In this document: positions 587-12,188 of the stretch, in pieces
Layout: every line of letters starts with the position of its first letter
How positions within the stretch are numbered: position 1 is the first letter of the stretch
Assembly: GCA_964419375.1 (NCBI GenBank)
Contig: CAYQQT010000049.1
Span: 1-12,642 of the forward strand
Direction of reading: 5' to 3'
Length of the DNA: 12,642 bases
Origin: an uncultured bacterium
GTDB lineage: Bacteria; Methylomirabilota; Methylomirabilia; Rokubacteriales; CSP1-6
Made by a program: the position numbers and the translations under genes
The notes under the pieces: generated by a model
Told to the model about the DNA's origin: nothing
What the model saw: the letters and a program-made list of their open reading frames with translations, nothing else
Database searches by the model: none

Positions 587-1912
587 ATGATTGACTGGAC
601 CGCGCTCGGGGAAGAGACCGTCGATCTCCTTCGCCGCTATCTGAGGATCGACACGACGAACCCGCCCGGCAACGAGGTGGACGGCGCGCGCTTTCTCGCC
701 GAGGTCCTCGCCCGCGACGGGATCAAGAGCGAGACGGTGGAGTCGGCGCCCGGCCGCGCGAACCTCGTGGCGCGGCTGGGCGGCGACGGCGCGCTGGGAG
801 GGATCGTCCTCCACCATCACATCGACGTCGTGTACGCGGACCGCCGGTACTGGAGCGTCGATCCCTTCGGCGGCGTCATCGAGAACGGCTTTCTCTACGG
901 GCGCGGCGCCCTCGACATGAAGTCCACCGGCATCCTCCAGCTGGCGGCGCTGCTCGCCATCAAGCGGGCGCGGGTGCCGCTCAAGCGCGACCTCATCTTC
1001 CTCGGCACGGCGGATGAGGAGGCGGGCAGCCAGTTCGGCGCGCAGTTCGTGGCCGACCATCACCGCCACTGGCTCGCGGGCGCCGAGTACGCGCTCTCCG
1101 AGCTGGGCGGCATCGACGTCGAGCACGGCTATCGCGCGCCGCTGGCGTCCATCGTCATCTCCGAGAAGACCGGGCTGCCCCTGCGCTTCACCGCGCGCAG
1201 TAGCCCGGGGCACGGCTCCATGCCGTGGCCCGACACCGCGCCCCATCGCCTCATCCGCGCCCTCGGACGGCTGCTCGCCGCGGAGCGCCCTCCGCGGGTG
1301 CTGCCCGAGATCCAGGAGTTCTTCGCGCGCCTCGGCAGCGTGCTACCCGGGGACGAGGGCGCCGGCTTCGACGACCTCGCGGGCTCGCTGCGCGACGCCG
1401 CCTTCCGCGCGCGCTTCTTCGCGAACCGCCTGTACGCCGCGAAGGTGCGCACCACCTTCGCCGCCAACATGCTGAAGGGCAGCGAGAAGCTCAACGTCAT
1501 CCCGCCCGAAGCGAGCGCCGAGGTGGATTGCCGCATGCTGGCGGGCGAGGACCCGGACGAGATCCTCGCCTGGGTGCGCCGCGTGGTGAGCGACGAGCAC
1601 GTGACGGTGGAGTTCATCCGCCCGCCGAAGATCGCCAACCTCTCGGCGCCGGACACGGAGATGTACAAGGTCATCGCCGACACGCTGCGCGCGCGCGTAC
1701 CGGGGGCGGTGGTGGCGCCCGACATCCTCACCGGATTCACCGACAACTGGGTGTTCCGCCGCTGCGGGCTCTCCGGCTACGGCTGGAGCCCATTCGTCCT
1801 CGACGCGGGCGAGTGGACCCGGGTGCACGGCAACGACGAGCGCGTCTCCCTCGAGAATCTACGGGCGGGCGTGCGCGCCTACACCGAGACGCTACTCGCC
1901 ATCGCCGCCTGA
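587..1912 (+). CDS. M20 family metallopeptidase (ArgE/DapE/CPG2-type amidohydrolase or dipeptidase)
   Basis: A 441-aa ORF has uniformly high third-position GC. Family motifs are present: IDTTNPPGNE near the N-terminus, HHHIDVV (metal-binding His/Asp), GALDMKS (the GxxDxK motif), and the acidic cluster ADEEAGS. The stop codon is TGA at 1910-1912. Confidence 0.9.
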   Translation: MIDWTALGEETVDLLRRYLRIDTTNPPGNEVDGARFLAEVLARDGIKSETVESAPGRANLVARLGGDGALGGIVLHHHIDVVYADRRYWSVDPFGGVIENGFLYGRGALDMKSTGILQLAALLAIKRARVPLKRDLIFLGTADEEAGSQFGAQFVADHHRHWLAGAEYALSELGGIDVEHGYRAPLASIVISEKTGLPLRFTARSSPGHGSMPWPDTAPHRLIRALGRLLAAERPPRVLPEIQEFFARLGSVLPGDEGAGFDDLAGSLRDAAFRARFFANRLYAAKVRTTFAANMLKGSEKLNVIPPEASAEVDCRMLAGEDPDEILAWVRRVVSDEHVTVEFIRPPKIANLSAPDTEMYKVIADTLRARVPGAVVAPDILTGFTDNWVFRRCGLSGYGWSPFVLDAGEWTRVHGNDERVSLENLRAGVRAYTETLLAIAA

Positions 1913-1917
1913 GCACA

Positions 1918-2430
1918 ATGGCCACCACCGCCCTCACCGTGCGGCGCGGCACGGCGCGCGACGTGCCCACCATCGTGGCGCTCATCCGCGGGCTCGCCCG
2001 GTACGAGCGCCTCGCCGCGCAGATGAAGGCCACCGCGCGCGCCATCCGCCGCGACGGCTTCGGCCGGCGCCGGTACTTCGAGACGCTCATCTGCCGGCGC
2101 CGCGGCGAGCCCATCGGCTTCGCGCTCTACTTCTTCACGTACTCGACGTTCATGGGCAAGCCCACGCTCTACCTCGAAGACCTCTTCGTCGTGCCCGCCG
2201 CGCGCGGCGAGGGGGCGGGGCGCGCGCTTCTGGCCGCCCTCGCGCGCCTCGCCGTACGGCGTGGCTGCGGGCGCATGGAGTGGGCCGTGCTCGACTGGAA
2301 CCGCCCCGCCATCCGCTTCTACGAGCGGCTGGGCGCGCGGCTTCGCAAGGAATGGATCCTCACGCGGGTGACGGGCGCCGCGCTGCGGCGCCTCGCCCGC
2401 GGCGGCAGCCTCAGCGATCGAGGCCGTTGA
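1918..2430 (+). CDS. GNAT family N-acetyltransferase (spermidine/spermine-N1-acetyltransferase-like)
   Basis: The ATG at 1918 lies 5 nt after the M20 stop codon, so the two genes are probably translationally coupled. The 170-aa product has SSAT-like features: ARYERL, the acetyl-CoA-binding segment VVPAARGEGAGRALLAALARLA, and RFYERLGA. The ORF-track entry 1225..2430 is real only from position 1918 onward. Confidence 0.85.
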   Translation: MATTALTVRRGTARDVPTIVALIRGLARYERLAAQMKATARAIRRDGFGRRRYFETLICRRRGEPIGFALYFFTYSTFMGKPTLYLEDLFVVPAARGEGAGRALLAALARLAVRRGCGRMEWAVLDWNRPAIRFYERLGARLRKEWILTRVTGAALRRLARGGSLSDRGR

Positions 2431-3523
2431 GGCGCGCGCCCGCGCACTCCCACAGCAGCGGGATGGCGACGGCGACGCTGAGGCCGCGCGCGTGCGCGCG
2501 CGACTGGCCGCCCGGGGTCTCCGCGAAGTCGATCACCCGCCGAGCGGAGGGGCAGAGGTCGATGGCCGGGTCCTGGCCGAGGGCTTCCCACATTTCCTTG
2601 CTGTCCAGCGTGCGCGCCCTCCACGCGGCGGCGGCGAGCACGTGCAGCTCCATCGTGTCGCGCACGCCCGCCTTCAGCTCCGGCGCGGCCGCCACGCCCA
2701 GGTACCGGTTGACGTCGGCCTTGGCGAACGCCACGCGGCTCGAGTACACGGGGTACGGCACCGTGGGCGTGCTCACCGCCTGGATGTCCTTCAGCGCGCG
2801 GAGCGCGTCGGCGAACGCCGCGCGCTCGACCTCCGACGCGGGGGGCGGCGCCACCGCCGTGGGCGCGGCCGTCCGGGACTCCAGCCGCGCGTCCTCGTCG
2901 AGCGCCTGCAATCCAAGCCACAACACCACGCCGCCGATCACGAGCACGACCACGACCGCGCCGAACCAGAAGCGCGACGTGGTGGGGCGCGGGGCGGCGC
3001 GCGCCGCGGTCTGCGAGTCCATCGCGCGCTTCATGGCGGCGTCGAGATTCAGGCGCGGCGGGACGGGACGCTCTCGCGGGCGGGCCGGCGCCGCCGCCGG
3101 CTTCGCGGCAGGCGGCTCTGCTTCGATCGCCAGGCGGAGCGCCTCGTCGAGGTCCGGGCTGGGCGATCGCGAGGCGGCGGGCGCCGGGCGGGCCTTCGAA
3201 TCGGCCGCCTCCTCCGCCTCCAACGCCTGCCTCAGCGCTTCCTGCAGGTCGCCGCTCGGCGCGGGCGCCTTCGGCTTTTCAGGCGCCCTCGCCGCCGCAG
3301 GCCCCTTCGGCAGCGCGGGCGACGCGTCAGCGCACGGCGGCGCGCTCAGCGGCAGAGGGAGCTTGGCTTCCTCGGGCGTGATCCACCGGTCCATGGCGGC
3401 GCCGCACGCGCACGTCAGCGTGAGCAGGTAGCCGCCGCCCGTCTGCGTGGTGGCATTCGGCGTGATGCCGCCGCACGCCGCGTGGGAGCGCGCGAAGCGC
3501 TCGATATCGCCGAAGTCGCTCAC
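2411..3523 (-). CDS. Hypothetical single-pass membrane protein with Cys/His-containing N-terminus, tandem Ala/Glu/Pro-rich repeat, one TM helix and a ~160-aa C-terminal (probably periplasmic) domain
   Basis: Third-position GC is high from the GTG at 3523 down to the stop codon at 2411-2413. The GTG overlaps the TGA of the upstream gene (GTGA, 3520-3523). An alternative ATG start lies at 3394 (MDRW). The TM helix is FWFGAVVVVLVIGGVVLWLGL, at about 2900-2971. The stretch between 3523 and the ORF-track start at 4018 is Arg-rich shadow frame and is not part of the gene. Confidence 0.6.
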   Translation of the reverse strand: MSDFGDIERFARSHAACGGITPNATTQTGGGYLLTLTCACGAAMDRWITPEEAKLPLPLSAPPCADASPALPKGPAAARAPEKPKAPAPSGDLQEALRQALEAEEAADSKARPAPAASRSPSPDLDEALRLAIEAEPPAAKPAAAPARPRERPVPPRLNLDAAMKRAMDSQTAARAAPRPTTSRFWFGAVVVVLVIGGVVLWLGLQALDEDARLESRTAAPTAVAPPPASEVERAAFADALRALKDIQAVSTPTVPYPVYSSRVAFAKADVNRYLGVAAAPELKAGVRDTMELHVLAAAAWRARTLDSKEMWEALGQDPAIDLCPSARRVIDFAETPGGQSRAHARGLSVAVAIPLLWECAGARLNGLDR

Positions 3524-4233
3524 GGAAGGGGCCCGTCGACCCCGGTCACCTTCCAGGCCGCGCCGTCGGCCGCGACGTGCACGAGCAGGATCTTCGAGAG
3601 TGGCGCGAACGTGCCCTCGCGCACGGTCACGCGGAACTCGTGCCACGTGGGCGACGCCCGCACGGGTGCCACGCGCTCCCAGCAGCCGGAATCGACGAGG
3701 CGGAAGTCTTCCAGGCGCAAAATGCGCACCTGCTCCCTCCACGCAGGCGATGCCTCGCCGCCGCTCCATACCGCGTCGCCCGCCTCGCCCTTGCGCCACG
3801 CTTCCACGACGGCGAGGGCGGTGCTCAGCCCCAGCTCCTGGCCCGCGCGCGGCGGGCACGCCGTGCGCCCGAGCACGACGTTCGTAGTGGGCAGGACCAG
3901 GAGCAGCAGACCGGCGATGGCGAAGGCGAGGCCGCTCACCGCCCGCACGACGGACCGGCGCGAGGTGACGGCCACGCCCAGCACGAGGGCGACGACGAGG
4001 ACACCGACGGCGAGCCACTGCAGTGGCGCCACCATCCCTCGGTGCCCCGCGTCATCGAGCAGGCGCAGGAGGACGACCACGAACGGTGACAGGAAGACGC
4101 ACATCCACACCACGATCCACGGGTGCGCAGCCCACCACGCGAAGGGCGCCGCGTACGGCGACACCTTCTTCTTGGGACGCGGGCGCGGGCGGGGCGGGGG
4201 CGGAGGCGGCGGCGGCCGTCGGATGATGGACAC
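3520..4233 (-). CDS. Hypothetical polytopic membrane protein (N-terminal poly-Pro/Lys tract, three predicted TM helices, ~115-aa C-terminal soluble domain)
   Basis: In this frame third-position GC is high only from about 4233 downward. The GTG at 4233 lies 8 nt after a weak AGGG Shine-Dalgarno-like sequence and 10 nt after the SPFH gene's stop codon. An alternative ATG start lies at about 4104 (WMCVF). The three hydrophobic segments are WIVVWMCVFLSPFVVVLLRLL, LQWLAVGVLVVALVLGVAV and VSGLAFAIAGLLLLVLP. The stop codon is TGA at 3520-3522. I found no recognisable family. Confidence 0.55.
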   Translation of the reverse strand: MSIIRRPPPPPPPPRPRPRPKKKVSPYAAPFAWWAAHPWIVVWMCVFLSPFVVVLLRLLDDAGHRGMVAPLQWLAVGVLVVALVLGVAVTSRRSVVRAVSGLAFAIAGLLLLVLPTTNVVLGRTACPPRAGQELGLSTALAVVEAWRKGEAGDAVWSGGEASPAWREQVRILRLEDFRLVDSGCWERVAPVRASPTWHEFRVTVREGTFAPLSKILLVHVAADGAAWKVTGVDGPLP

Positions 4234-4243
4234 TAAGGGAACC

Positions 4244-5321
4244 CTATGGCCGCACGATCGAAGCGTCAAGGGGGCGACCAAGGTTGGCCGCGGCATGGGC
4301 GCCCGCGCGGCTGCCCCAGTGGTACGCCTCCTCGAAGAGCGAGAACCCGGAGAGATCGGAATGGGCGAGGTGCACGGGACCGCGCAGCGCGTCCACGGCC
4401 GCCCGTCGCGCGGCCCCGCACACGAAGCCGACCTCGGGCCGGACCATCGCGTGGCCGTAGGGCGCCACGTCGATACGGCTGGCCCATCGCCTGCCCCATC
4501 GCCACGCCCGCGCCGAGACCGACGCCGGCGCCCGCGGCGCCGTCTTCGTTGGCGGCCGCGATCGGGATCGACTGCGCGGTCTGGTACTGGGAGTAGCGCG
4601 TCATGTCGCCCACGATGCCCATGCCGATGCGCTCGTCGAGGCGCTTCCGCAGCTCCTCGGGCAGCGAGACGTTCTGCACCTGGAAGGCCTCGAGTGACAA
4701 TCCGAGATCGCCGAAGCCGGCGCGCACCTTGTCGGCAACGGCCGCGCCGAGCTCCACCTGGTTGGCGGCCATGTCGAGGAAGGGCACGCCGCTCTCGCCG
4801 AAGTGGTCGGTGAGGACGGCCACCACGGAGTTGCGCAGCTGGCCCTCGAGATCGCCGATGGTGTAGGTGTCGCGCGTGCCCGACACCTTGGTGAAGAAGA
4901 CCTGGGGGGAGGTGATCTCGAAGGAGTAGATGCCGAAGGCGCGCATGCGGACGGCGCCGAACTCCTTGTCGCGGATGGTGATGGGATTGGACGTCCCCCA
5001 CTTCTGGTTGATGCGCAGCCGCGTGAAGAAGAAGTAGACGTCGCTCTTGAAGGGCGACTCGAAGAGCTTGTCCCAGTGCGCGAGGTCGGTGAGCAGCGGG
5101 ATGTTCTGCGTCTTGATCGTGTGCTGTCCGGGCCCGAAGAGGTCCGCCGCCTTGCCCTGGTGCGCGAAGAGCGCGGCCTGCGTGTCGCGCACGATGAGCT
5201 GGGCGCCCTGCTGGATCTCGGCATCGCGCATGGGGAAGCGCCAGGCGAGAACCTCGTCGCTGTCCTCGGTCCACTGGATGATGTCGATGAACTGCTTCTT
5301 GAGGAAGTCGAGGAATCCCAT
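4244..5321 (-). pseudogene. SPFH/band-7 (flotillin-like, YdjI-type) protein gene with a +1 frameshift near 4470-4485 (either a disrupted gene or a sequence error)
   Basis: The ATG at 5321 is preceded by GGGGAGG with a 5-nt spacer. The N-terminus MGFLDFLKKQFIDIIQWTE is typical of the YdjI-like SPFH family. The domain frame has high third-position GC down to the Gly-rich linker AGVGLGAGVAMGQAMGQ, after which third-position GC collapses and the translation turns Arg-rich. Coding signal resumes one nucleotide out of phase (RIDVAPYGHAMV...IVRP) and ends at TAG 4244-4246. Confidence 0.7.
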
Positions 5322-5360
5322 GCGCACCTCCCCTCACAGACTCGACATCAGATGCTCGCG

Positions 5361-5390
5361 GGTCTAGGTGCCCGCGCGGGGAAGTGTCAA
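5361..5390 (-). promoter_or_regulatory. Candidate sigma70-type promoter for the SPFH operon
   Basis: On the minus strand there is a -35 TTGACA (5390..5385), an 18-nt spacer, and a -10-like TAGACC (5366..5361). The predicted 5' UTR of about 30 nt contains the GGAGG Shine-Dalgarno sequence. Confidence 0.35.
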
Positions 5391-5413
5391 GAAAAGGTCG
5401 GGCCGGCGCGTGT

Positions 5414-5442
5414 TTGACCGCGCGGGAGCGTTCGTGTAGATT
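5414..5442 (+). promoter_or_regulatory. Candidate sigma70-type promoter TTGACC-17-TAGATT for the histone-like gene, placing the TSS at or next to the ATG (leaderless)
   Basis: TTGACC lies at 5414-5419, followed by a 17-nt spacer, TAGATT at 5437-5442, and the ATG at 5450 (7 nt after the -10). There is no Shine-Dalgarno sequence. Confidence 0.45.
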
Positions 5443-5449
5443 CCGCGGC

Positions 5450-5680
5450 ATGAAGAAACGTGCTCCCGCGAAGAAGCAGGCTGCCGCGCGCAAGCCGGCG
5501 GCGATGAAGAAGGCCCCCTCGAAGCCCACGGCGGCGAAGTCGGCCGCGAAGAAGCCCGCCCCCCGCGCCGCCGCCGCGCCGAGCAGCAGGCGCCCGCAGG
5601 CGCCCGCGCAGAGGGCCGGGTACACCCCCCCCCCGCTGAAGACCGACGGCTTCCCGGCGTTCCGCTACCCGCCGCAATAG
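5450..5680 (+). CDS. Small highly basic Lys/Ala/Pro-rich protein (histone H1-like / nucleoid-associated type)
   Basis: The 76-aa product begins MKKRAPAKKQAAARKPAAMKKAPSKPTAAKSAAKKPAP and ends in a non-basic Pro-rich tail. Third-position GC is high from the ATG at 5450, whereas the upstream in-frame ATG at 5384 sits in sequence with low third-position GC. The stop codon is TAG at 5678-5680. Confidence 0.6.
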   Translation: MKKRAPAKKQAAARKPAAMKKAPSKPTAAKSAAKKPAPRAAAAPSSRRPQAPAQRAGYTPPPLKTDGFPAFRYPPQ

Positions 5681-5705
5681 CGCCGGGCACCCGGGGGCGG
5701 CATCG

Positions 5706-6110
5706 ATGTCCGGGCTGATCGGGCTGGCGCCCGCCGTGGCGCTCGCCTGCACGGCCCTCCCAGCGGCGGCCGCCGCCACTGCCGCGCTCACCGCCGTGAC
5801 CTTCAACCTCCTGCATGGCGGCGCCACCTCCGGTCTCACCGGCGAGGACCAGGAGCTCGAGTTGCGCCCCGACGACACCGGGGCCACGGTGTGGCAGCGC
5901 GTGGAGGCGCCCGCGCCCACCGCCTCCCGGCGCGTCGACTTCATGTTCCTCGTGCCCGGCACGCAGTACACGGCCGAGGTGCGCAGCAGCCGCGTCGTCA
6001 TCAACGCGCCCCGGCACTTGTCCGACGGCCGCACCCTCTGGCCGTCCGATCACTACGGCGTGCTCGGCGAGATGGTGATCGTCCCCCGCTCGCAGAGCGC
6101 GCGGCCGTGA
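5706..6110 (+). CDS. Small secreted protein carrying only the N- and C-terminal motifs of the endonuclease/exonuclease/phosphatase (EEP) fold
   Basis: The ORF is 134 aa with an N-terminal signal-like hydrophobic region (LIGLAPAVALACTALPAAAAA). An EEP-type first motif (VTFNLLHGG) and last motif (WPSDHYGVLGEMVI) are both present, but only about 70 aa separate them. Third-position GC is high throughout. Confidence 0.5.
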   Translation: MSGLIGLAPAVALACTALPAAAAATAALTAVTFNLLHGGATSGLTGEDQELELRPDDTGATVWQRVEAPAPTASRRVDFMFLVPGTQYTAEVRSSRVVINAPRHLSDGRTLWPSDHYGVLGEMVIVPRSQSARP

Positions 6111-6856
6111 CGCGCAGGTCGCTGACGATCATCCTCGCGCTGCTCTCCTTCGTCGGCTGCGCGGCCTTCGAGCGCACCACCGTGAACTGGTGGCAGGCGA
6201 GCCGCGAGCCGTCGGGGCAGGCGCCAAATCCGGCAATCACCCGGGAGGCGGTGGTCCAGGTCTACGCCGCGCGCACGGTGGGCTGGCGCGGAGTGTTCGG
6301 CGTCCACACGTGGGTGGCGGTCAAGCGCGAGGGGGCGGCGGCGTACCGGCGCTACGAAGTCATCGGCTGGGGCGTCGAGCGCGGCGCGCCCGCGGTGCGC
6401 GTCGATCGCACCGGTCCCGACAACGACTGGTTCGGGGCCAGGCCGGAGCTGCTCGTCGACGTGCGTGGCGCTGATGTCGACGCGCTCATCACGAGAATCG
6501 AGGCGGCGGTGGCCGCCTATCCGTATCCCTCGACCTACCGGACGTGGCCGGGACCGAACAGCAACACCTTCGTCGCCCACGTGGGCCGCGCGGTCCCCGA
6601 GCTGCGCCTGGTGCTGCCGCCCACGGCGATCGGCAAGGACTTCCTGCCCGGCGGCGCGTTGATAGCGCCGAGTCCGGCGGGACGCGGACTACAGCTTTCA
6701 TTCCTCGGGGTTGCCGGTATTCTCGCGGGCTGGGAGGAGGGGCTGGAGATCAACGTGCTCGGGCTCACCTTCGGCATCGACGTGAAAGCCCCCGCGCTCA
6801 AGCTGCCAGTGGCCGGACGGGTGGGCGTTACGCCGGCTTTACACGGAGGACGTTGA
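6107..6856 (+). CDS. Hypothetical lipoprotein
   Basis: The GTG at 6107 overlaps the upstream TGA (GTGA). The lipoprotein signal LTIILALLSFVGC contains a lipobox (FVGC). About 225 aa of mature protein follow (WVAVKREG, PGPNSNTFVAHVGR), for which I cannot name a family with confidence. The stop codon is TGA at 6854-6856. Confidence 0.6.
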   Translation: MTRRSLTIILALLSFVGCAAFERTTVNWWQASREPSGQAPNPAITREAVVQVYAARTVGWRGVFGVHTWVAVKREGAAAYRRYEVIGWGVERGAPAVRVDRTGPDNDWFGARPELLVDVRGADVDALITRIEAAVAAYPYPSTYRTWPGPNSNTFVAHVGRAVPELRLVLPPTAIGKDFLPGGALIAPSPAGRGLQLSFLGVAGILAGWEEGLEINVLGLTFGIDVKAPALKLPVAGRVGVTPALHGGR

Positions 6857-7919
6857 AGGCGCTCACCGGCTTCGAGAAGCCCTTGAGCGTGAGCTCCCCC
6901 ACCGGCTCCACCTCGACGAGGTCTTCCACCGCGCCCCACAGCCGGCGCGAGATGAGGATCTCCCCCGCCTTCGCTTCGCCGCACAGCCGCGCGGCGAGAT
7001 TGGTGACGATGCCGATGGCGCCATAGTCCCAGCGGCCTTCGAAGCCGATGGCGCCGATGGTGGCATAGCCCTGGGCGATGCCCACGCCGAAGGCGAGGTC
7101 GTAGCCGCGCTTGCGCCAGCCTCCCATGAGACGCTGCACGCCCTCACGCATGGCGAGGGCCATGCGCACCGCCCGCTCCTGCGCGTTCGGCACCGGCACG
7201 GGGTCGTTGAAGAAGATCATCATGCCGTCGCCGGTGAAGCGCTCCAGCGTGCCCTCGTGCTCGAGGATGATCCGGCCCATGGCCGCGTGGTAGTCGCGCA
7301 GCACGCCCATCACCTCTTCCGGGTCGGCCGTCTCCGCGAAGGCGGTGAACCCGCGCAGGTCGAGAAAGGCCACCGTGATGTCGCGCCGGTGGCTCTTGAG
7401 CGGATCCTCGGCGTCGCCGCTGAGGATGGCTTCCGCGAGCGCGGGCGAGAAGAACCGCTTGAGACGGCCCAGCCGCTCCAGCTGCGTCACCTGCTCCTGC
7501 ACGCGCCGCTCGAGGGTCCCGTTGAGGTCGGCGAGCCGGTCCCACAGCTCCTTGACCCGCAGCAGCGAGCGCACGCGCGCGAGCATCTCGGGCTGGTTGA
7601 TGGGCTTGGTGAGGAAATCGTCGGCCCCCGCCTCGATGCCCTTCACGCGCTCCTGCACGGGATCGAGCGCGGTCACCATGACCACGGGGAGCATGGCGGT
7701 GGCGGGATTGTCGCGCACCTTGCGGCACACCTCGTAACCGCTGAGCCCGGGCATCATCACGTCGAGCAGCACGAGGTCGGGGCGCTCGCGCTCGATCCTC
7801 TCGAGCGCCTCCACGCCGTTGGCGGCGGTGCTCACCGTATAGCCCTTCACGGTGAGGAGATCGGCGAGGAGCTTGACGTTGACGGGCGTGTCGTCGACGA
7901 CCAGGATGCGCGCGCTCAT
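6828..7919 (-). CDS. Response regulator with C-terminal class III adenylate/guanylate cyclase (CHD) output domain
   Basis: The start is ATG at 7919 (MSARILVVDD). The receiver domain contains LLDVMMPG and GADDFLTKP. The cyclase domain contains ITVAFLDLRGFT (metal-binding Asp) and RFTGDGMMIFF. The ATG overlaps the stop codon of the upstream receiver gene (ATGA). Confidence 0.85.
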   Translation of the reverse strand: MSARILVVDDTPVNVKLLADLLTVKGYTVSTAANGVEALERIERERPDLVLLDVMMPGLSGYEVCRKVRDNPATAMLPVVMVTALDPVQERVKGIEAGADDFLTKPINQPEMLARVRSLLRVKELWDRLADLNGTLERRVQEQVTQLERLGRLKRFFSPALAEAILSGDAEDPLKSHRRDITVAFLDLRGFTAFAETADPEEVMGVLRDYHAAMGRIILEHEGTLERFTGDGMMIFFNDPVPVPNAQERAVRMALAMREGVQRLMGGWRKRGYDLAFGVGIAQGYATIGAIGFEGRWDYGAIGIVTNLAARLCGEAKAGEILISRRLWGAVEDLVEVEPVGELTLKGFSKPVSAFNVLRVKPA

Positions 7920-8293
7920 GGCCGCGGCAGGGCCGCCTGCACCGCCGCCAGGAACGCCTTCACGTTGATAGGCTTGGACTGGTAGCCGTCGAAGCCCGCC
8001 GCGAGGATCTTCGAGCGGTCCGTGCTCATGGCGGAGGCGGTGACGGCCAGGACCGGGATCGCGCGCGTGGATTCGTCGGCGCGGATCTGCGCCAGCGCTT
8101 CGATGCCGCTGATGCCCGGGAGCTGGATGTCCATGAGGATGAGCGCCGGCCGCAGCTCGCGCGCGAGCCGGACGCCCTCCTCGCCCGTCTCCGCCTCCGC
8201 GAGGCGGTAGCCCTTGAAGGCGAGCACGTCGCGGACGAGCTTGCGGTTTTTCTCGTTGTCCTCGACGATCAGGATGAGCTCGCCCGCCATCAC
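7916..8293 (-). CDS. Single-domain CheY-like response regulator (receiver only)
   Basis: The roughly 125-aa product contains ILIVEDNEKNRKL, LILMDIQLPGISG and GFDGYQSKP. Its start (GTG 8293 or ATG 8290) overlaps the kinase stop codon at 8290-8292. Confidence 0.85.
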   Translation of the reverse strand: MMAGELILIVEDNEKNRKLVRDVLAFKGYRLAEAETGEEGVRLARELRPALILMDIQLPGISGIEALAQIRADESTRAIPVLAVTASAMSTDRSKILAAGFDGYQSKPINVKAFLAAVQAALPRP

Positions 8294-10641
8294 GCCACCG
8301 GGATGGTGAAGGTGAAGGTGGATCCCTCACCCACCTGGCTCTTCACCCACATGCGGCCACCGTGCAGCTCGACGAACCGCCGCGCGAGCGCGAGGCCGAG
8401 GCCGGTGCCCTCGCGCTTCTTCGCGTAGTCGGTGCCCACCTGCCGGAACTCCTCGAAGACCGCCTCCTGATCTTCGGGGGCGATACCCACCCCGGTGTCA
8501 GTGACGGAGATCTCGGCGGCGCCGTCCACCCGCGCTGCGCGCACCTGGATGCGGCCGCCCTCGGGCGTGAACTTCACCGCGTTGGACAGCAGATTCAGGA
8601 GAACCTGCTTGATCTTGCGCTCGTCGCCGCGCACGGTGCCCAGCCGTGCGTCCACCGCCGTGGCGAGCGCGAGGCCGTGCCGCGCCGCCCGCTCGCGCAC
8701 GAGGACGAGCGCGTTGTCGATGGCCTGCGGCAGATCGAACTCCGCCGCCTCCAGCTCCATGCGCCCCGCCTCGATCTTCGACAGGTCGAGGATGTCGTTG
8801 ATGAGCGACAGCAGGTGCCGGCCCGACGACAGGATGTCGTTCAGATACTCCTCCTGCTTTTCGTTCAGCTCGCCGAACATCCGCTCCAGCAGGACCTCCG
8901 AGAAGCCGATCACCGCGTTGAGGGGCGTGCGCAGCTCGTGCGACATGTTGGCGAGGAACTGCGACTTGTGCTCGTTGGCGATCTCGAGCTGCCGCGTCTT
9001 CTCCTGCGTCTCGTTGAGAAGGCGCACGTTCTCGATGGCGATGACGGCCTGGTCGGCGAAGGTCTTCACGAGGCGAACTTGCTTGTCGCTGAAGGGCCGC
9101 ACCTCCTTGCGGTGGAAGCTGAGGGCACCGACGAGCTCGCCCTCCTTCAGCATCGGCACGGCGAGAGCGGATCGCATCCCTTCGCGCCGATAGACTTCGG
9201 GCAGCGAGAATCGGGGGTCGGTCTGGACGTCGGCGCTGTGCACTGGCGCCAGCTCGAGGCCGACCCGTCGCAACGGCGTTTCGGGGCCGGGTGGGACGAC
9301 CATCGCGCGCACTTCGTCGGCGAATGGCGCCTCCGAGCTGATGGCGGCGAGACGGAAGGCGCCGTGTTCGAACCTCCACACCGCGCCGTACGCCGCCTCG
9401 CAGAGGCGCAGTGCGTTGGCGAGAATTCGGTCGAAGACGGGCTGAACGTTGGTGGGGGAGCTGGAAATGACGCTCAGCACCTCGCCCGTCGCCGTCTGTT
9501 GCTCGAGCGCCTCGGTGAGCTCGCGCGTACGCTCGTCCACCCGTTGCTCGAGGGTGGCGTACGACTCCTGCAGCTGCTCCGTCATCTGGTTGAACTGCTC
9601 GGCGAGCACCTCGATCTCGTCGCCCGTCTTCAGCTCCAGCCGCTGCCGCAGCTCGCCGGCGCCGATCTTGGCGGCGCCTTCCTGCAGCGCGCGGATGGGC
9701 TGCACCATGCGACGGGCGAGGATCAGGCTTGCCACGATGGACATGGCGACGCCGAGCACGATGAGGATGACCGTGCGCTGAATGGAGGCGCGCAGCGTCG
9801 CGAACGCCTCCCCGAGGGGCTGTTCGGCAAACACGAACCAGCGCAGCGACGGGATGTCGGCGTGCGCGGTGAGCACGCGATGCCCCTGGAGGTCGCGCGC
9901 GATGGGCACAGCGGCGGCGCCACCGCCGCCCCTGCCGCGGAAGATCGCCGCCGTGACCTGGTCGAGAGCGGCCATGTTCGTCTTCTGCAGCACGAGGCTG
10001 ATGTCGGGATGGGCCACCAGCGCCCCCGCCCCGTCCACCACGTAGGCACGGCCGGCGGTGCCGATCTTGATGCGGGAGACCACGTCCCAGATGAACTTGA
10101 GATTCACCTCCGCCACGATGACGCCACCCCCGCCCGTCTGCGCCATCGCGATGCTCATGTACGGCTCCGACTCCTTGCGGAAGTACACCGGGCCGTAATA
10201 CGTCCGTGCCGCGCGCGCCTGCTGGAACTTGGGGTCCGTGGAGAAGTCGGTGCCGCTCCCCGCCACGTCCATCGCCAGGCGCGACACGCGCAGCTGCTCC
10301 TTGCCCGCCGCATCGAGGTAGCTGAGCTCGGTGATGGCGGGCACCTGGCGCAGGAGGCGGAGGAAGTCGACCCGTCGCTGCTCGATGGCGCCGGGCGCGG
10401 GCACGAGCTGCGGCTGCGTCGTCCAGCCGATCTGCCGCTCGATCTCCTTGACGAAGCTCTCGATCTGCGCGGCGGCGGCCGCCGCCTTCTCGCGCTGCAG
10501 GCTGACGAGCGCCGCCTGGTTCTCCTGGTAGGAGAAGTAGAGCTCGAGCGCGCCGCTCGCGAGGAGGGCGCCGCTCACCAGTCCCACGAAGACGACGACG
10601 TACTTGCGAAAGAGCCGGCCGCGCGGCATCAGCGGAGGCAT
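8290..10641 (-). CDS. Sensor histidine kinase: TM, Cache-like periplasmic domain, TM, HAMP, GAF, HisKA, HATPase_c
   Basis: The 783-aa product has two hydrophobic segments (YVVVFVGLVSGALLASGAL and VILIVLGVAMSIVASLIL) flanking about 250 aa. It then has a HAMP-like linker, a GAF-like region, the H-box SHELRTPLNAV, the N-box LLSNAVKFT, and the G-boxes DTGVGI and GTGLGLALARRFVELHGG. Confidence 0.85.
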   Translation of the reverse strand: MPPLMPRGRLFRKYVVVFVGLVSGALLASGALELYFSYQENQAALVSLQREKAAAAAAQIESFVKEIERQIGWTTQPQLVPAPGAIEQRRVDFLRLLRQVPAITELSYLDAAGKEQLRVSRLAMDVAGSGTDFSTDPKFQQARAARTYYGPVYFRKESEPYMSIAMAQTGGGGVIVAEVNLKFIWDVVSRIKIGTAGRAYVVDGAGALVAHPDISLVLQKTNMAALDQVTAAIFRGRGGGGAAAVPIARDLQGHRVLTAHADIPSLRWFVFAEQPLGEAFATLRASIQRTVILIVLGVAMSIVASLILARRMVQPIRALQEGAAKIGAGELRQRLELKTGDEIEVLAEQFNQMTEQLQESYATLEQRVDERTRELTEALEQQTATGEVLSVISSSPTNVQPVFDRILANALRLCEAAYGAVWRFEHGAFRLAAISSEAPFADEVRAMVVPPGPETPLRRVGLELAPVHSADVQTDPRFSLPEVYRREGMRSALAVPMLKEGELVGALSFHRKEVRPFSDKQVRLVKTFADQAVIAIENVRLLNETQEKTRQLEIANEHKSQFLANMSHELRTPLNAVIGFSEVLLERMFGELNEKQEEYLNDILSSGRHLLSLINDILDLSKIEAGRMELEAAEFDLPQAIDNALVLVRERAARHGLALATAVDARLGTVRGDERKIKQVLLNLLSNAVKFTPEGGRIQVRAARVDGAAEISVTDTGVGIAPEDQEAVFEEFRQVGTDYAKKREGTGLGLALARRFVELHGGRMWVKSQVGEGSTFTFTIPVA

Positions 10642-10669: not shown

Positions 10670-11152
10670 TCACTCCGCTTCGCCGAGCACCCGGTCGATG
10701 GCCTTCTCCAGGCAGCGCTTGATCTCGTCGCGGCAGGCGCGGAAGGTGTCCTCGCCCTGCCCCGCGGGGTCGCCGATGTCCCCCGCCTCGCCCGCGAGCT
10801 CGCGCAGCGTGACGACGGTGGGCGCGCCCGCCGCCGCCAGCTCGCCCACGATGCGCTTCTGCTCCACCGTCATGGTCACGATGAGGTCGGCGCCCGTAAT
10901 GAGGTCGGGGTGAGCCCGGAGCGCGGTGGAGACGACCGCATCCTCGGCCACGAGGAGACCGTCCTCCTTGAGCGCCAAACGCGCGTCGAGGGAGGCGATC
11001 ATGCCGTCACGCGCCCACGGCGCCACCCCCGCCGAGCGCACGCGCACGCGATCGCCGGCGCCGCGCGCGGCGAGCATGCGGTCGAGGAGCAGCTGCGCCA
11101 TCACGCTGCGGGCGGTGTTGGCGTGGCACACGAACAGCAGCGCTTTAGCCAC
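10670..11152 (-). CDS. Low-molecular-weight protein tyrosine phosphatase / ArsC-like (CX5R) family protein
   Basis: The start is GTG at 11152 (VAKALLFVCHANTARS), giving the P-loop C-X5-R-S. A DP-loop (IGDPAG) and a C-terminal C-X6-C pair (CRDEIKRC) follow. The GTG overlaps the 3' end of the upstream thioredoxin-fold gene by 8 nt. Confidence 0.8.
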   Translation of the reverse strand: MAKALLFVCHANTARSVMAQLLLDRMLAARGAGDRVRVRSAGVAPWARDGMIASLDARLALKEDGLLVAEDAVVSTALRAHPDLITGADLIVTMTVEQKRIVGELAAAGAPTVVTLRELAGEAGDIGDPAGQGEDTFRACRDEIKRCLEKAIDRVLGEAE

Positions 11153-12188
11153 GCGTGTCCGGCAGCGGCTTGTAGTACGGCTGGCCGCCGCCCACCCACG
11201 CCGCCAGCATCTCGCGGAACTGCGGGCCCATGGGATCGATGCCGCGCATGGGCATGCTGCCGCGCCGGATGGTGAAGTCATGCGGGGCCAGCTCGCCCGC
11301 CTTCACGAAATGGCGCTCGGCGGCGGCCTTCCTCGACTGCTGGAAGAGCCACTCCGCGAGCCCGAACTCGGCGCGCGCCTGCTGATCGGACGCGGTGGGG
11401 ACGGGCAGCAGCGCGCGCGCCTCCTTGGGCGCGAAGCCCCCGCCCTCCCCGCGCACCCACCTGCGGAGCGCGTTGAGATGGATCTCCGCGGTGAGACCCG
11501 TGATCTGCTTGTAGGTGTCGGTGCCGAAAGCGACGTCGTGGGGCCGCACGATGCGTCCCTTCTCGTCGATCCACAGCACGGTGGGAACGTTGACGATGTT
11601 GTAGAGCTCGGCGAGCGCGTGGCGCGTGTCGATCAGCGACGGGTGCGCGGGGCGCGCCGCCTCGATCCACGGCCGCGCGTCCTCCGCGCTCTTGTCGAGG
11701 GCGACCGTGATCACGGTGAAGCCGAAGCCCTTCAGCTCCTCGTACATGGCCTGCCACACCGGCAGGTCGAGGCGGCACCCTCACCAGGAGGCGTAAGCGA
11801 CGAGCAGCACCTTCTTGCCGCGATGCTCGGAGAGCGAGTGCAGCCGCCCCGCGAGATCGGGCAGCGTGAAGTCCGGCGCTTCCAGCGACCCCAGCGCCTG
11901 CGCGCGCTCGTGCGCGGACACGCCCAGGTACGCCGCCGACTCCGCCACGTCGAGCGCGAGCGGCCGGTCCAGGGCGGCCGCCAGCGCGGCGAGATCGATG
12001 CCGCGCTCGTCGGCGAGCGCGGCGGCATCCGCCACCGGCACGCACATGCTGTCGCTGCAGAGCTGGCCGCCGTGAAACTCCCAGCCGAGCGCGGTGTGCA
12101 CCGCCTCCGCGGGCACGCGCACGCGCCCGCCATCGATGGTGGCGGGCACCACCACCGCGCGTCCCTCGTCGAGAATGGTGAAGGTCAT
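11145..12188 (-). CDS. Candidate selenoprotein: cytoplasmic TlpA/ResA-type thioredoxin-fold thiol-disulfide oxidoreductase with in-frame UGA (Sec) in the redox motif and N- and C-terminal extensions
   Basis: The two ORF-track entries 11781..12188 and 11145..11759 are in the same frame and separated only by TGA 11781-11783. Third-position GC is high on both sides. The sequence around the TGA reads GKKVLLVAYASW-[TGA]-GCRLDLPVWQAMYEELKGFGFTVITV, and VPTVLWIDEKGRIV follows later, matching the TlpA/ResA pattern (FWASW-CxxC-K...P...Y...G...V..V). A SECIS-like hairpin starts 9 nt after the TGA. The start is ATG at 12188, 2 nt after the NUDIX stop codon. Confidence 0.7.
11738..11772 (-). promoter_or_regulatory. 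Bacterial SECIS-like stem-loop immediately 3' of the in-frame UGA
   Basis: The mRNA reads UGA GGGUGCCG [CCUCG] A [CCUGCC] GGUGU [GGCAGG] CCAUGUA [CGAGG]. The upper stem is 6 bp (11766-11761 with 11755-11750), with a 5-nt apical loop GGUGU 21-25 nt after the UGA. The lower stem is 5 bp (11772-11768 with 11742-11738), with an asymmetric internal loop between the stems. Confidence 0.5.

Follow-up and report, generated by a model that had tools for sequence, protein, structure and literature searches.

Does the TGA codon at 11781..11783 on the minus strand of contig CAYQQT010000049.1 (assembly GCA_964419375.1, an uncultured bacterium) end one gene, or does it encode an amino acid in the middle of a longer one? 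The 12,642-nt stretch of this contig that was analysed, hereafter the window, contains two open reading frames (ORFs), 11781..12188 and 11145..11759, that share a frame and are separated by this single TGA. A preliminary description proposed that they form one thioredoxin-fold oxidoreductase in which the TGA encodes a redox-active selenocysteine (Sec). Both ORFs are present in the ORF table, and the local translation, GKKVLLVAYASW-TGA-GCRLDLPVWQAMYEELKGFGFTVITV, matches that description. The region 12188..11145 very probably forms a single gene, in which the UGA is read as Sec and whose product is a cytoplasmic selenoprotein with three domains, a member of the 'UGC-containing Prx-like / TlpA-like' family.

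Reading frame and conservation of the TGA codon

The sequence and its translation give one minus-strand frame of 347 codons (12188..11145) with a single internal TGA. The complete selenoprotein gene begins with the ATG at 12188, has the TGA as codon 136 and ends with a TAA at 11147..11145. Full-length homologues align with its product end to end, and tblastn matches in related genomes cover residues 1–347. Codons 136–138 are TGA-GGG-TGC, and the recoded protein around codon 136 reads ...VAYASW-U-GCRLDLPVWQ. The predicted Sec, U136, opens a U-G-C redox motif, and Cys138 (TGC, 11775..11777, minus strand) is its putative resolving partner. Coding sequence is found on both sides of the TGA, as had been claimed. 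The GC content at third codon positions is 0.95 downstream of the TGA, and the upstream portion is judged to be coding from the conservation of the N-terminal 135 aa, with tblastn matches at 84 related loci.

Eighty loci came from a scan of species-representative genomes and a further 80 from a metagenome scan seeded with an alignment of Cys forms. In the genome loci, the homologous codon is TGA in 79 of 80 (84 gene copies) and TGC in one. In the metagenome loci it is TGA in all 80, although the scan was seeded with Cys forms. Across the loci the motif context is KKVLLVA[YW]ASW-TGA-GCRxDLP[VG]WQ. The 160 independent loci yield 159 distinct 84-nt regions in which the TGA is in frame and the protein is conserved on either side, a recurrence that greatly exceeds chance expectation. 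The Cys138 codon is TGC in 143 and TGT in 16 of these 159 Sec-type sequences. The contigs that carry the TGA are labelled as Methylomirabilota/Rokubacteria, Binatia, Chloroflexota, Armatimonadota, Dormibacterota and proteobacterial metagenome-assembled genomes (MAGs). Species-representative genomes alone contain 452 relatives.

The protein database was searched with the window protein, U replaced by C, and the best 120 database proteins were considered. These form two populations. The first consists of full-length proteins of 340–356 aa with 48–61% identity, in which the motif is ASW-C-GCR and the first Cys is aligned on the TGA. C-G-C is present at the motif position in 44/44 full-length Cys-type homologues. 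The spacing of one residue between the two redox positions, noted as an oddity in the preliminary description, is genuine and is kept throughout the family. The Cys codon is confirmed in the DNA that encodes three of these homologues (P0013, P0025 and P0005, by exact-protein look-ups), and TGC or TGT is present at the site in the Cys-type loci L075, L161, L162 and L163. The TGA therefore falls at the position of a redox-active Cys, as proposed. The second population consists of proteins of 200–208 aa with 72–96% identity that start a few residues past the TGA (MYEELK..., VWQA..., MDLPVWQ...). These C-terminal fragments make up 76 of the 120 entries and are labelled 'hypothetical protein' or 'AhpC/TSA family'. 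Fragments of this kind are the usual signature of selenoprotein genes that have been split by gene callers.

Hairpin downstream of the TGA

Comparative and folding evidence identifies a hairpin of the selenocysteine insertion sequence (SECIS) type at 11750..11766 on the minus strand. Its 5' arm is CCUGCC (11766..11761), its loop is GGUGU (11760..11756) and its 3' arm is GGCAGG (11755..11750). The hairpin starts 14 nt past the UGA and the loop starts after 20 nt (11780..11761). In the 66 nt from the UGA in the window sequence, the hairpin pairs with a probability of 0.995; reduced to its minimal 24 nt, it has a free energy of -11.1 kcal/mol. RNAalifold chooses the same stem for 149 Sec-type sequences, with 98.8% of cells paired. 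The stem is 6 bp long in the window and 5 bp in the consensus.

These dimensions are congruent with the published bacterial SECIS consensus (PMC13188914), which has a loop of 3–9 nt on an upper stem of 4–16 bp (5 nt and 6 bp in the window), a G in the first two loop positions followed by G or U (G-G-U-G-U), a distance from UGA to apical loop of 16–37 nt (20 nt) and a minimum free energy of -7.5 kcal/mol or lower (-11.1 kcal/mol). The window hairpin also agrees with the published statement that a conserved loop G lies some 20 nt past the UGA (PMC4605307).

The hairpin could instead be a by-product of the conserved D-L-P-V-W-Q residues and of codon bias, with recoding directed by another signal. 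Of the six pairs in the stem, four are invariant, codon usage at a genomic GC content of about 70% favours CTG, CCG and CAG, and D-L-P-x-W-Q is often kept in Cys forms too. This explanation is very improbable, and the main evidence against it comes from synonymous sites. Among the 159 Sec forms, the Leu codon of the 5' arm is CTG in 156, TTG in three and CTC in none, whereas for a control Leu that lies ten codons further on in this alignment the codon is CTC in 74 and CTG in 69 (Fisher p = 3e-32). The Gln codon of the 3' arm is CAG in 157 and CAA in two. The three TTG codons, the sole variants of the stem Leu, occur twice with CAA, a compensatory change from C-G to U-A, and once with CAG, which retains a G-U wobble.

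Loop position 2 is G in 159/159 Sec forms and is followed by U in 154 and by G in five. The loop-encoded residue is consequently Val or Gly in all 159, versus 28/44 Cys forms (p = 2e-12). Four Cys-form DNAs give hairpin pairing probabilities of 0.007, 0, 0.005 and 0.37. The stem is broken in two of the four, which combine CTG with CAA, and the Val is replaced by Ala or Ser in three of the four. The hairpin is thus relaxed in Cys forms.

Loop positions 1 and 4 covary (columns 24 and 27 of alignment A3, window positions 11760 and 11757). They are G..C in 120 sequences, C..G in 33, A..U in two and another combination in four; in the window they are G..G, a rare combination. A pair between positions 1 and 4 would close a loop of 2 nt, which is sterically unusual, and may reflect SelB-bound loops that extrude a G-U dinucleotide. 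The SECIS element is family-specific and very uniform, and can be used as a search pattern: UGA, 14 nt, C-CUGCC-NGKNU-GGCAG-G.

Alternative readings of the TGA

Several observations weigh against a selenoprotein at this locus. None of selA, selB, selD and tRNA-Sec is present in the 12.6-kb window. ARAGORN finds no tRNA-Sec in the window or in 60 loci around related genes, and a tblastn search with E. coli SelA, SelB and SelD gives no match in 1.68 Mb of loci around related genes. Folding of the region 11720..11790, of the kind that the preliminary description had suggested as a check, is not significant by itself. Its minimum free energy is no better than that of shuffled sequences (z = -0.23, in a 72%-GC context), and the support for the hairpin comes from comparison. 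The window loop, GGUGU, is rare (2/159). Most stem positions are invariant and the varying cells number three, in two pairs. True covariation is thin for this reason, and the main evidence for the hairpin is synonymous-site constraint; its conservation could come in part from amino-acid constraint on D-L-P-V-W-Q. Against the NCBIfam model NF041054.1, whose curated cut-off is 300 bits, the window protein scores 239.9. In the portions of the family literature covered here, no family member was found to have experimental support from 75Se labelling, mass spectrometry or activity.

A different explanation is that the UGA is read through without Sec, by near-cognate insertion of Trp or Cys or as a result of lineage-specific UGA reassignment. 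In bacteria, Trp or Cys tRNAs are known to read UGA at a low level, and no Sec machinery is found in the window or in the loci searched around related genes. This explanation is very improbable. TGA terminates 7 of the 11 other candidate ORFs in the window; it is therefore not generally reassigned and is a normal stop in this organism. The site is aligned with a catalytic Cys, which is the classic Sec/Cys pair. It is followed at the canonical distance by a hairpin that fits the SelB-type SECIS model and is relaxed in Cys forms, and the phylum of the closest related loci is reported to be rich in selenoproteins. One Methylomirabilota MAG has been reported with 63 predicted selenoprotein genes, and at the phylum level this suggests that the lineage decodes Sec.

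A further explanation, also very improbable, is that the TGA is a true stop, either between a 135-aa N-terminal protein that ends ...YASW and a 204-aa protein that starts at GTG 11759 (or ATG 11747), or within a pseudogene or an erroneous sequence. Gene callers annotate the locus in the former way, as the predominance of C-terminal fragments among the database entries indicates, TGA is an ordinary terminator for other ORFs in the window, and no Sec machinery is seen in the window or in loci around relatives. However, the same TGA, frame and flanking conservation recur in 159 distinct sequences across phyla and the Cys codon is confirmed in DNA, which excludes sequencing error, decay and two separate genes; Cys homologues run continuously through the site; in the model of homologue P0004 (below), the site of the TGA lies between strand beta-1 and the active-site helix of one and the same thioredoxin fold, so that neither half would be a folded domain; and simple termination leaves the nucleotide-level constraint on the hairpin unexplained. 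Orthologues that continue past the TGA, a conserved downstream part and a conserved hairpin are the opposite of what the preliminary description had named as fatal to its proposal. The selenoprotein reading is preferred in what follows.

Protein domains and proposed mechanism

The structure was examined in an AlphaFold2 model of P0004, a Cys homologue with 57% identity that serves as a stand-in for the window protein. The model (pLDDT 94.6, pTM 0.92) has three domains. The extensions on either side of the thioredoxin fold, of about 100 aa at the N-terminus and about 125 aa at the C-terminus, had been listed as oddities. They are conserved, and in this model they are folded domains.

The central domain, approximately residues 103–222 (11523..11882, minus strand), carries W-U-G-C-R and has a thioredoxin fold of the ResA/TlpA/DsbE type. 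This bears out the fold assignment of the preliminary description. In Pfam, residues 103–221 match AhpC-TSA (PF00578) with 63.6 bits (cut-off 26) and Redoxin with 53.7 bits, and the NCBIfam matches include ResA, StoA and TlpA. A Foldseek search of the P0004 model against the PDB returns ResA, DsbE and TlpA structures (3gl3, 1su9, 1st9 and others) with E values of about 1e-11 and TM-scores to the target of 0.8–0.86. In the model, a strand is followed by the motif and then by the long helix alpha-1, and the thioredoxin fold is unbroken across the motif.

The Sec is preceded by Y-A-S-W, with Ala at -3 and Ser at -2. The active-site context of TlpA/ResA proteins is W-A-[ST]-W-C, and the peroxidatic motif of peroxiredoxins is P-x3-[TS]-x2-C, with Thr or Ser at -3. 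The window sequence has the TlpA/ResA-type context. The peroxiredoxin (AhpC/Prx/BCP) motif was considered and rejected, as the window has Ala at -3.

The N-terminal domain, approximately residues 1–102 (11883..12188, minus strand), is rich in beta strands. It has a conserved G35-W36 and a C44-x4-C49 pair (codons 12059..12057 and 12044..12042), and it has no fold match in the PDB. The N-terminus, MTFTILDEGRAVVVPATIDGG, shows no signal peptide or hydrophobic segment by sequence inspection, in agreement with the preliminary description, and corresponds to beta strands of a folded domain in the P0004 model. The protein is presumably cytoplasmic. The GW...CX4C segment is absent from approximately 23 of 165 Sec copies, and the Cys pair is dispensable because a subclade of Sec-type genes is without it. 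An obligatory role of CX4C as redox partner of the UGC is weakened by the same copies.

The subclade with a shortened N-terminal domain is Rokubacteria-labelled and Sec-type. The domain is 57 aa long in L024, L029, L030, L032, L033, L035–L037, L039, L045, L047, L051, L055, L066–L068 and L073, and approximately 77 aa long in L060, L064, L074 and L077.

The C-terminal domain, approximately residues 223–347 (11148..11522, minus strand), is entirely helical. In the P0004 model it is a bundle of seven helices with pLDDT of about 90 or higher. H293, D304, R308, R309, G316, P337 and Y339 are invariant. TPR_12 and TPR_2 matches at residues 268–304 are weak and below threshold (E 0.015–0.07). The invariant polar residues of the thioredoxin and C-terminal domains together are R172, D187, H190, N200, D208, R215, H293, D304, R308, R309 and Y339. 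To judge from the alignment, so many invariant polar residues point to a dedicated substrate and not to reduction of protein disulfides in general.

A mechanism can be proposed from the sequence and the model. During translation, UGA codon 136 would be read as Sec. The mRNA hairpin 14 nt downstream would present an apical-loop G-U approximately 21–23 nt past the UGA, an arrangement of the kind recognised by bacterial SelB bound to Sec-tRNA(Sec). In the folded protein, Sec136 would lie at the N-terminus of helix alpha-1 and would probably be the nucleophile, because ResA/TlpA enzymes have their attacking Cys at this site. Cys138 would then resolve the intermediate through a U-G-C selenenylsulfide ring. 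This oxidised form is expected to be strained, since Cys138 is one residue closer than in CxxC. The outcome would be a fast, relatively oxidising thiol/selenol-disulfide exchanger or reductase. The domain architecture and invariant residues are now documented for a widespread selenoprotein and give biochemistry a concrete target.

Genomic neighbourhood

The closest loci, with 65–75% identity, are in MAGs labelled Methylomirabilota or Rokubacteria. The gene order NUDIX – selenoprotein – low-molecular-weight protein tyrosine phosphatase (LMW-PTP) – sensor kinase is common to approximately 40 such loci and is absent outside the phylum. On the basis of the closest loci and this synteny, the window most likely derives from the Methylomirabilota/Rokubacteria, and not from the deltaproteobacterial setting to which the preliminary description had pointed.

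The selenoprotein ATG at 12188 sits four bases past the TAA of the upstream NUDIX gene. Downstream is the LMW-PTP gene (10670..11152, minus strand; Pfam LMWPc, 71 bits). Its GTG start and the selenoprotein stop codon overlap by 8 nt (GTGGCTAA), which suggests translational coupling of the two genes. The LMW-PTP directly follows the selenoprotein gene in approximately 15 Rokubacteria-labelled loci and is 1–2 kb further downstream in approximately 25 others. Both the Nudix and the LMW-PTP neighbours are conserved within Methylomirabilota/Rokubacteria loci only, and a functional link is for this reason inseparable from simple synteny. The P-loop of the LMW-PTP reads C-H-A-N-T-A-R-S and is without the second Cys of the usual CxGNxCRS.

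A more specific role can be put forward tentatively, although it is rather unlikely as a whole. The protein would be no general disulfide reductase but a dedicated Sec enzyme whose active site combines U-G-C with the invariant His and Arg-Arg of the C-terminal domain. Its substrate would be small and anionic or linked to a low-molecular-weight thiol. In Methylomirabilota/Rokubacteria it would be the cognate reductant of the LMW-PTP/ArsC-like enzyme encoded by the overlapping gene, and the N-terminal CX4C domain would be an optional redox or targeting module.

A signalling cluster (6828..10641, minus strand) lies downstream of the LMW-PTP. Its members are a sensor kinase of dCache-HAMP-GAF-HisKA-HATPase architecture (8290..10641), a free-standing receiver (7916..8293) and, at 6828..7901, an adenylate/guanylate cyclase with a fused receiver, all on the minus strand. 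In 24 related loci the sensor kinase shows synteny with the selenoprotein gene. Further downstream, an SPFH gene (4266..5327, minus strand) matches Band_7_1 with 241 bits over residues 29–237. It has a tail of approximately 75 aa, rich in Arg, Gly and Pro, that is unlike family coding sequence and may reflect a frameshift or a mis-assigned stop. The regions 1912..4266 and 5333..6828 contain long overlapping ORFs on both strands with similar GC content at third codon positions. The ORF 5706..6110, the sole one tested there, has no Pfam match.

Tandem paralogues approximately 1.1 kb apart are present in five Tepidiformaceae loci, L044, L048, L058, L071 and L076 (at approximately 9230–10400 in each). 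Each copy has its own TGA and the same hairpin. Two gene-bearing contigs have unexpected labels. L010 (DASRWT010000029.1) is labelled 'Candidatus Nitrosocosmicus sp.', an archaeon, and L054 (CAMAVY010000027.1) is labelled as a 'Klebsiella pneumoniae' MAG. The L010 locus has the NUDIX and LMW-PTP synteny of Rokubacteria-labelled loci. Both contigs are probably mis-binned.

Comparison with known systems

The SECIS-type hairpin of the family can be compared with that of E. coli fdhF (NC_000913.3), in which the UGA is followed by 18 nt and then GGUC, within GCA-GGUC-UGC. The majority form of the family is GCC-GGUCU-GGC. Both have a short hairpin just downstream of the UGA and a loop with G then U/G approximately 20 nt away, and the commonest loop of the family with its 3' flank, GGUCUG, is an identical string in fdhF. 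They differ in stem sequence and in spacing, which is 20 nt in the family and 18 nt in fdhF. Compared with fdhF and with bacterial SECIS elements generally, the family hairpin has a 5-nt loop with covarying positions 1 and 4, and no bulged U is identified in it.

The window protein shares its thioredoxin-fold subclass and the active-site context W-A-[ST]-W-C with ResA, TlpA, CcmG (DsbE) and StoA. These proteins have C-x-x-C, whereas the window protein has U-G-C, which is one residue shorter and contains the predicted Sec (C-G-C in Cys forms). They are membrane-anchored or exported and act in the maturation of cytochrome c or Cu centres, whereas the window protein has no visible export signal and has two extra domains.

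The bacilliredoxins BrxA and BrxB have a C-G-C site, and the redox potential of YphP/BrxA is high (-130 mV); the pair reduce S-bacillithiolated proteins (PMC4360819). They are thioredoxin-like and offer a functional precedent for a CxC/UxC centre, not a family assignment. They differ in that they belong to DUF1094, contain no Sec, have a single domain and are restricted to bacillithiol producers.

The top NCBIfam match of the window protein is NF041054.1, 'WAxxUGC_long' (ResA-like WAxxUGC motif-containing protein, an equivalog model), with an E value of 4.8e-71. Nine other members of the clade, in Sec and Cys forms, score 252–281 bits. The window protein and the model have in common the N-terminal domain, the thioredoxin fold and the xAxxUGC motif. 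The model specifies W-A-x-x-U-G-C, whereas the window has Y-A-S-W-U-G-C; W-A-S-W-U-G-C is present in 12 of the 80 genome loci. The match covers profile positions 7–205 of 354 in the window protein and approximately 5–205 in the clade. Positions 206–354 are matched by no clade member tested, and the C-terminal 106 aa of the window protein alone give no match. Judged by this partial match, the clade appears to be a sister group of NF041054 with a different C-terminal domain, to which the model would not give its name.

Mis-annotation of the clade is extensive, with 76 of the 120 best database entries truncated and with NF041054 missing it by 20–60 bits. Its escape from that model fits the fact that most of its database entries are truncated. 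Hundreds of genes would be recovered if a model were newly built or retrained for the clade. Literature searches with UGC-motif selenoprotein wording, 'WAxxUGC' and the string GCCGGUCUGGC returned no match. The three-domain architecture and the family-specific SECIS element were not found described in the literature on the family (main texts by keyword, and the 2008 supplement cited below).

The family itself has been predicted computationally since 2008. Zhang & Gladyshev (PMC2398784) list a 'Prx-like (UGC-containing)' family assigned to pfam00578, with the motif UGC, for which the Global Ocean Sampling (GOS) data contain 46 Sec sequences and 855 Cys homologues. In BLASTP, two reads from the supplement of that study align with the window protein, JCVI_READ_1110824 with 45% identity over residues 98–339 (E 7e-72) and JCVI_READ_1091140387760 with 50% identity over residues 35–147 (E 1e-30). 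The window gene belongs to this family because the reads align over all three domains. In what that paper gives of the family, the common points are the U-G-C motif, the AhpC-TSA/TlpA-like fold and the presence of Cys homologues. The unusual UxC centre that the preliminary description put forward as a novelty is, by the same listing, the defining feature of a catalogued selenoprotein family. Nothing essential separates the window gene from the 2008 family; it comes from a soil/groundwater-type Methylomirabilota/Rokubacteria lineage, whereas the 2008 members are marine GOS sequences. As the UGC family has been catalogued since 2008, the window gene is a further member of it and not a novel kind of system.

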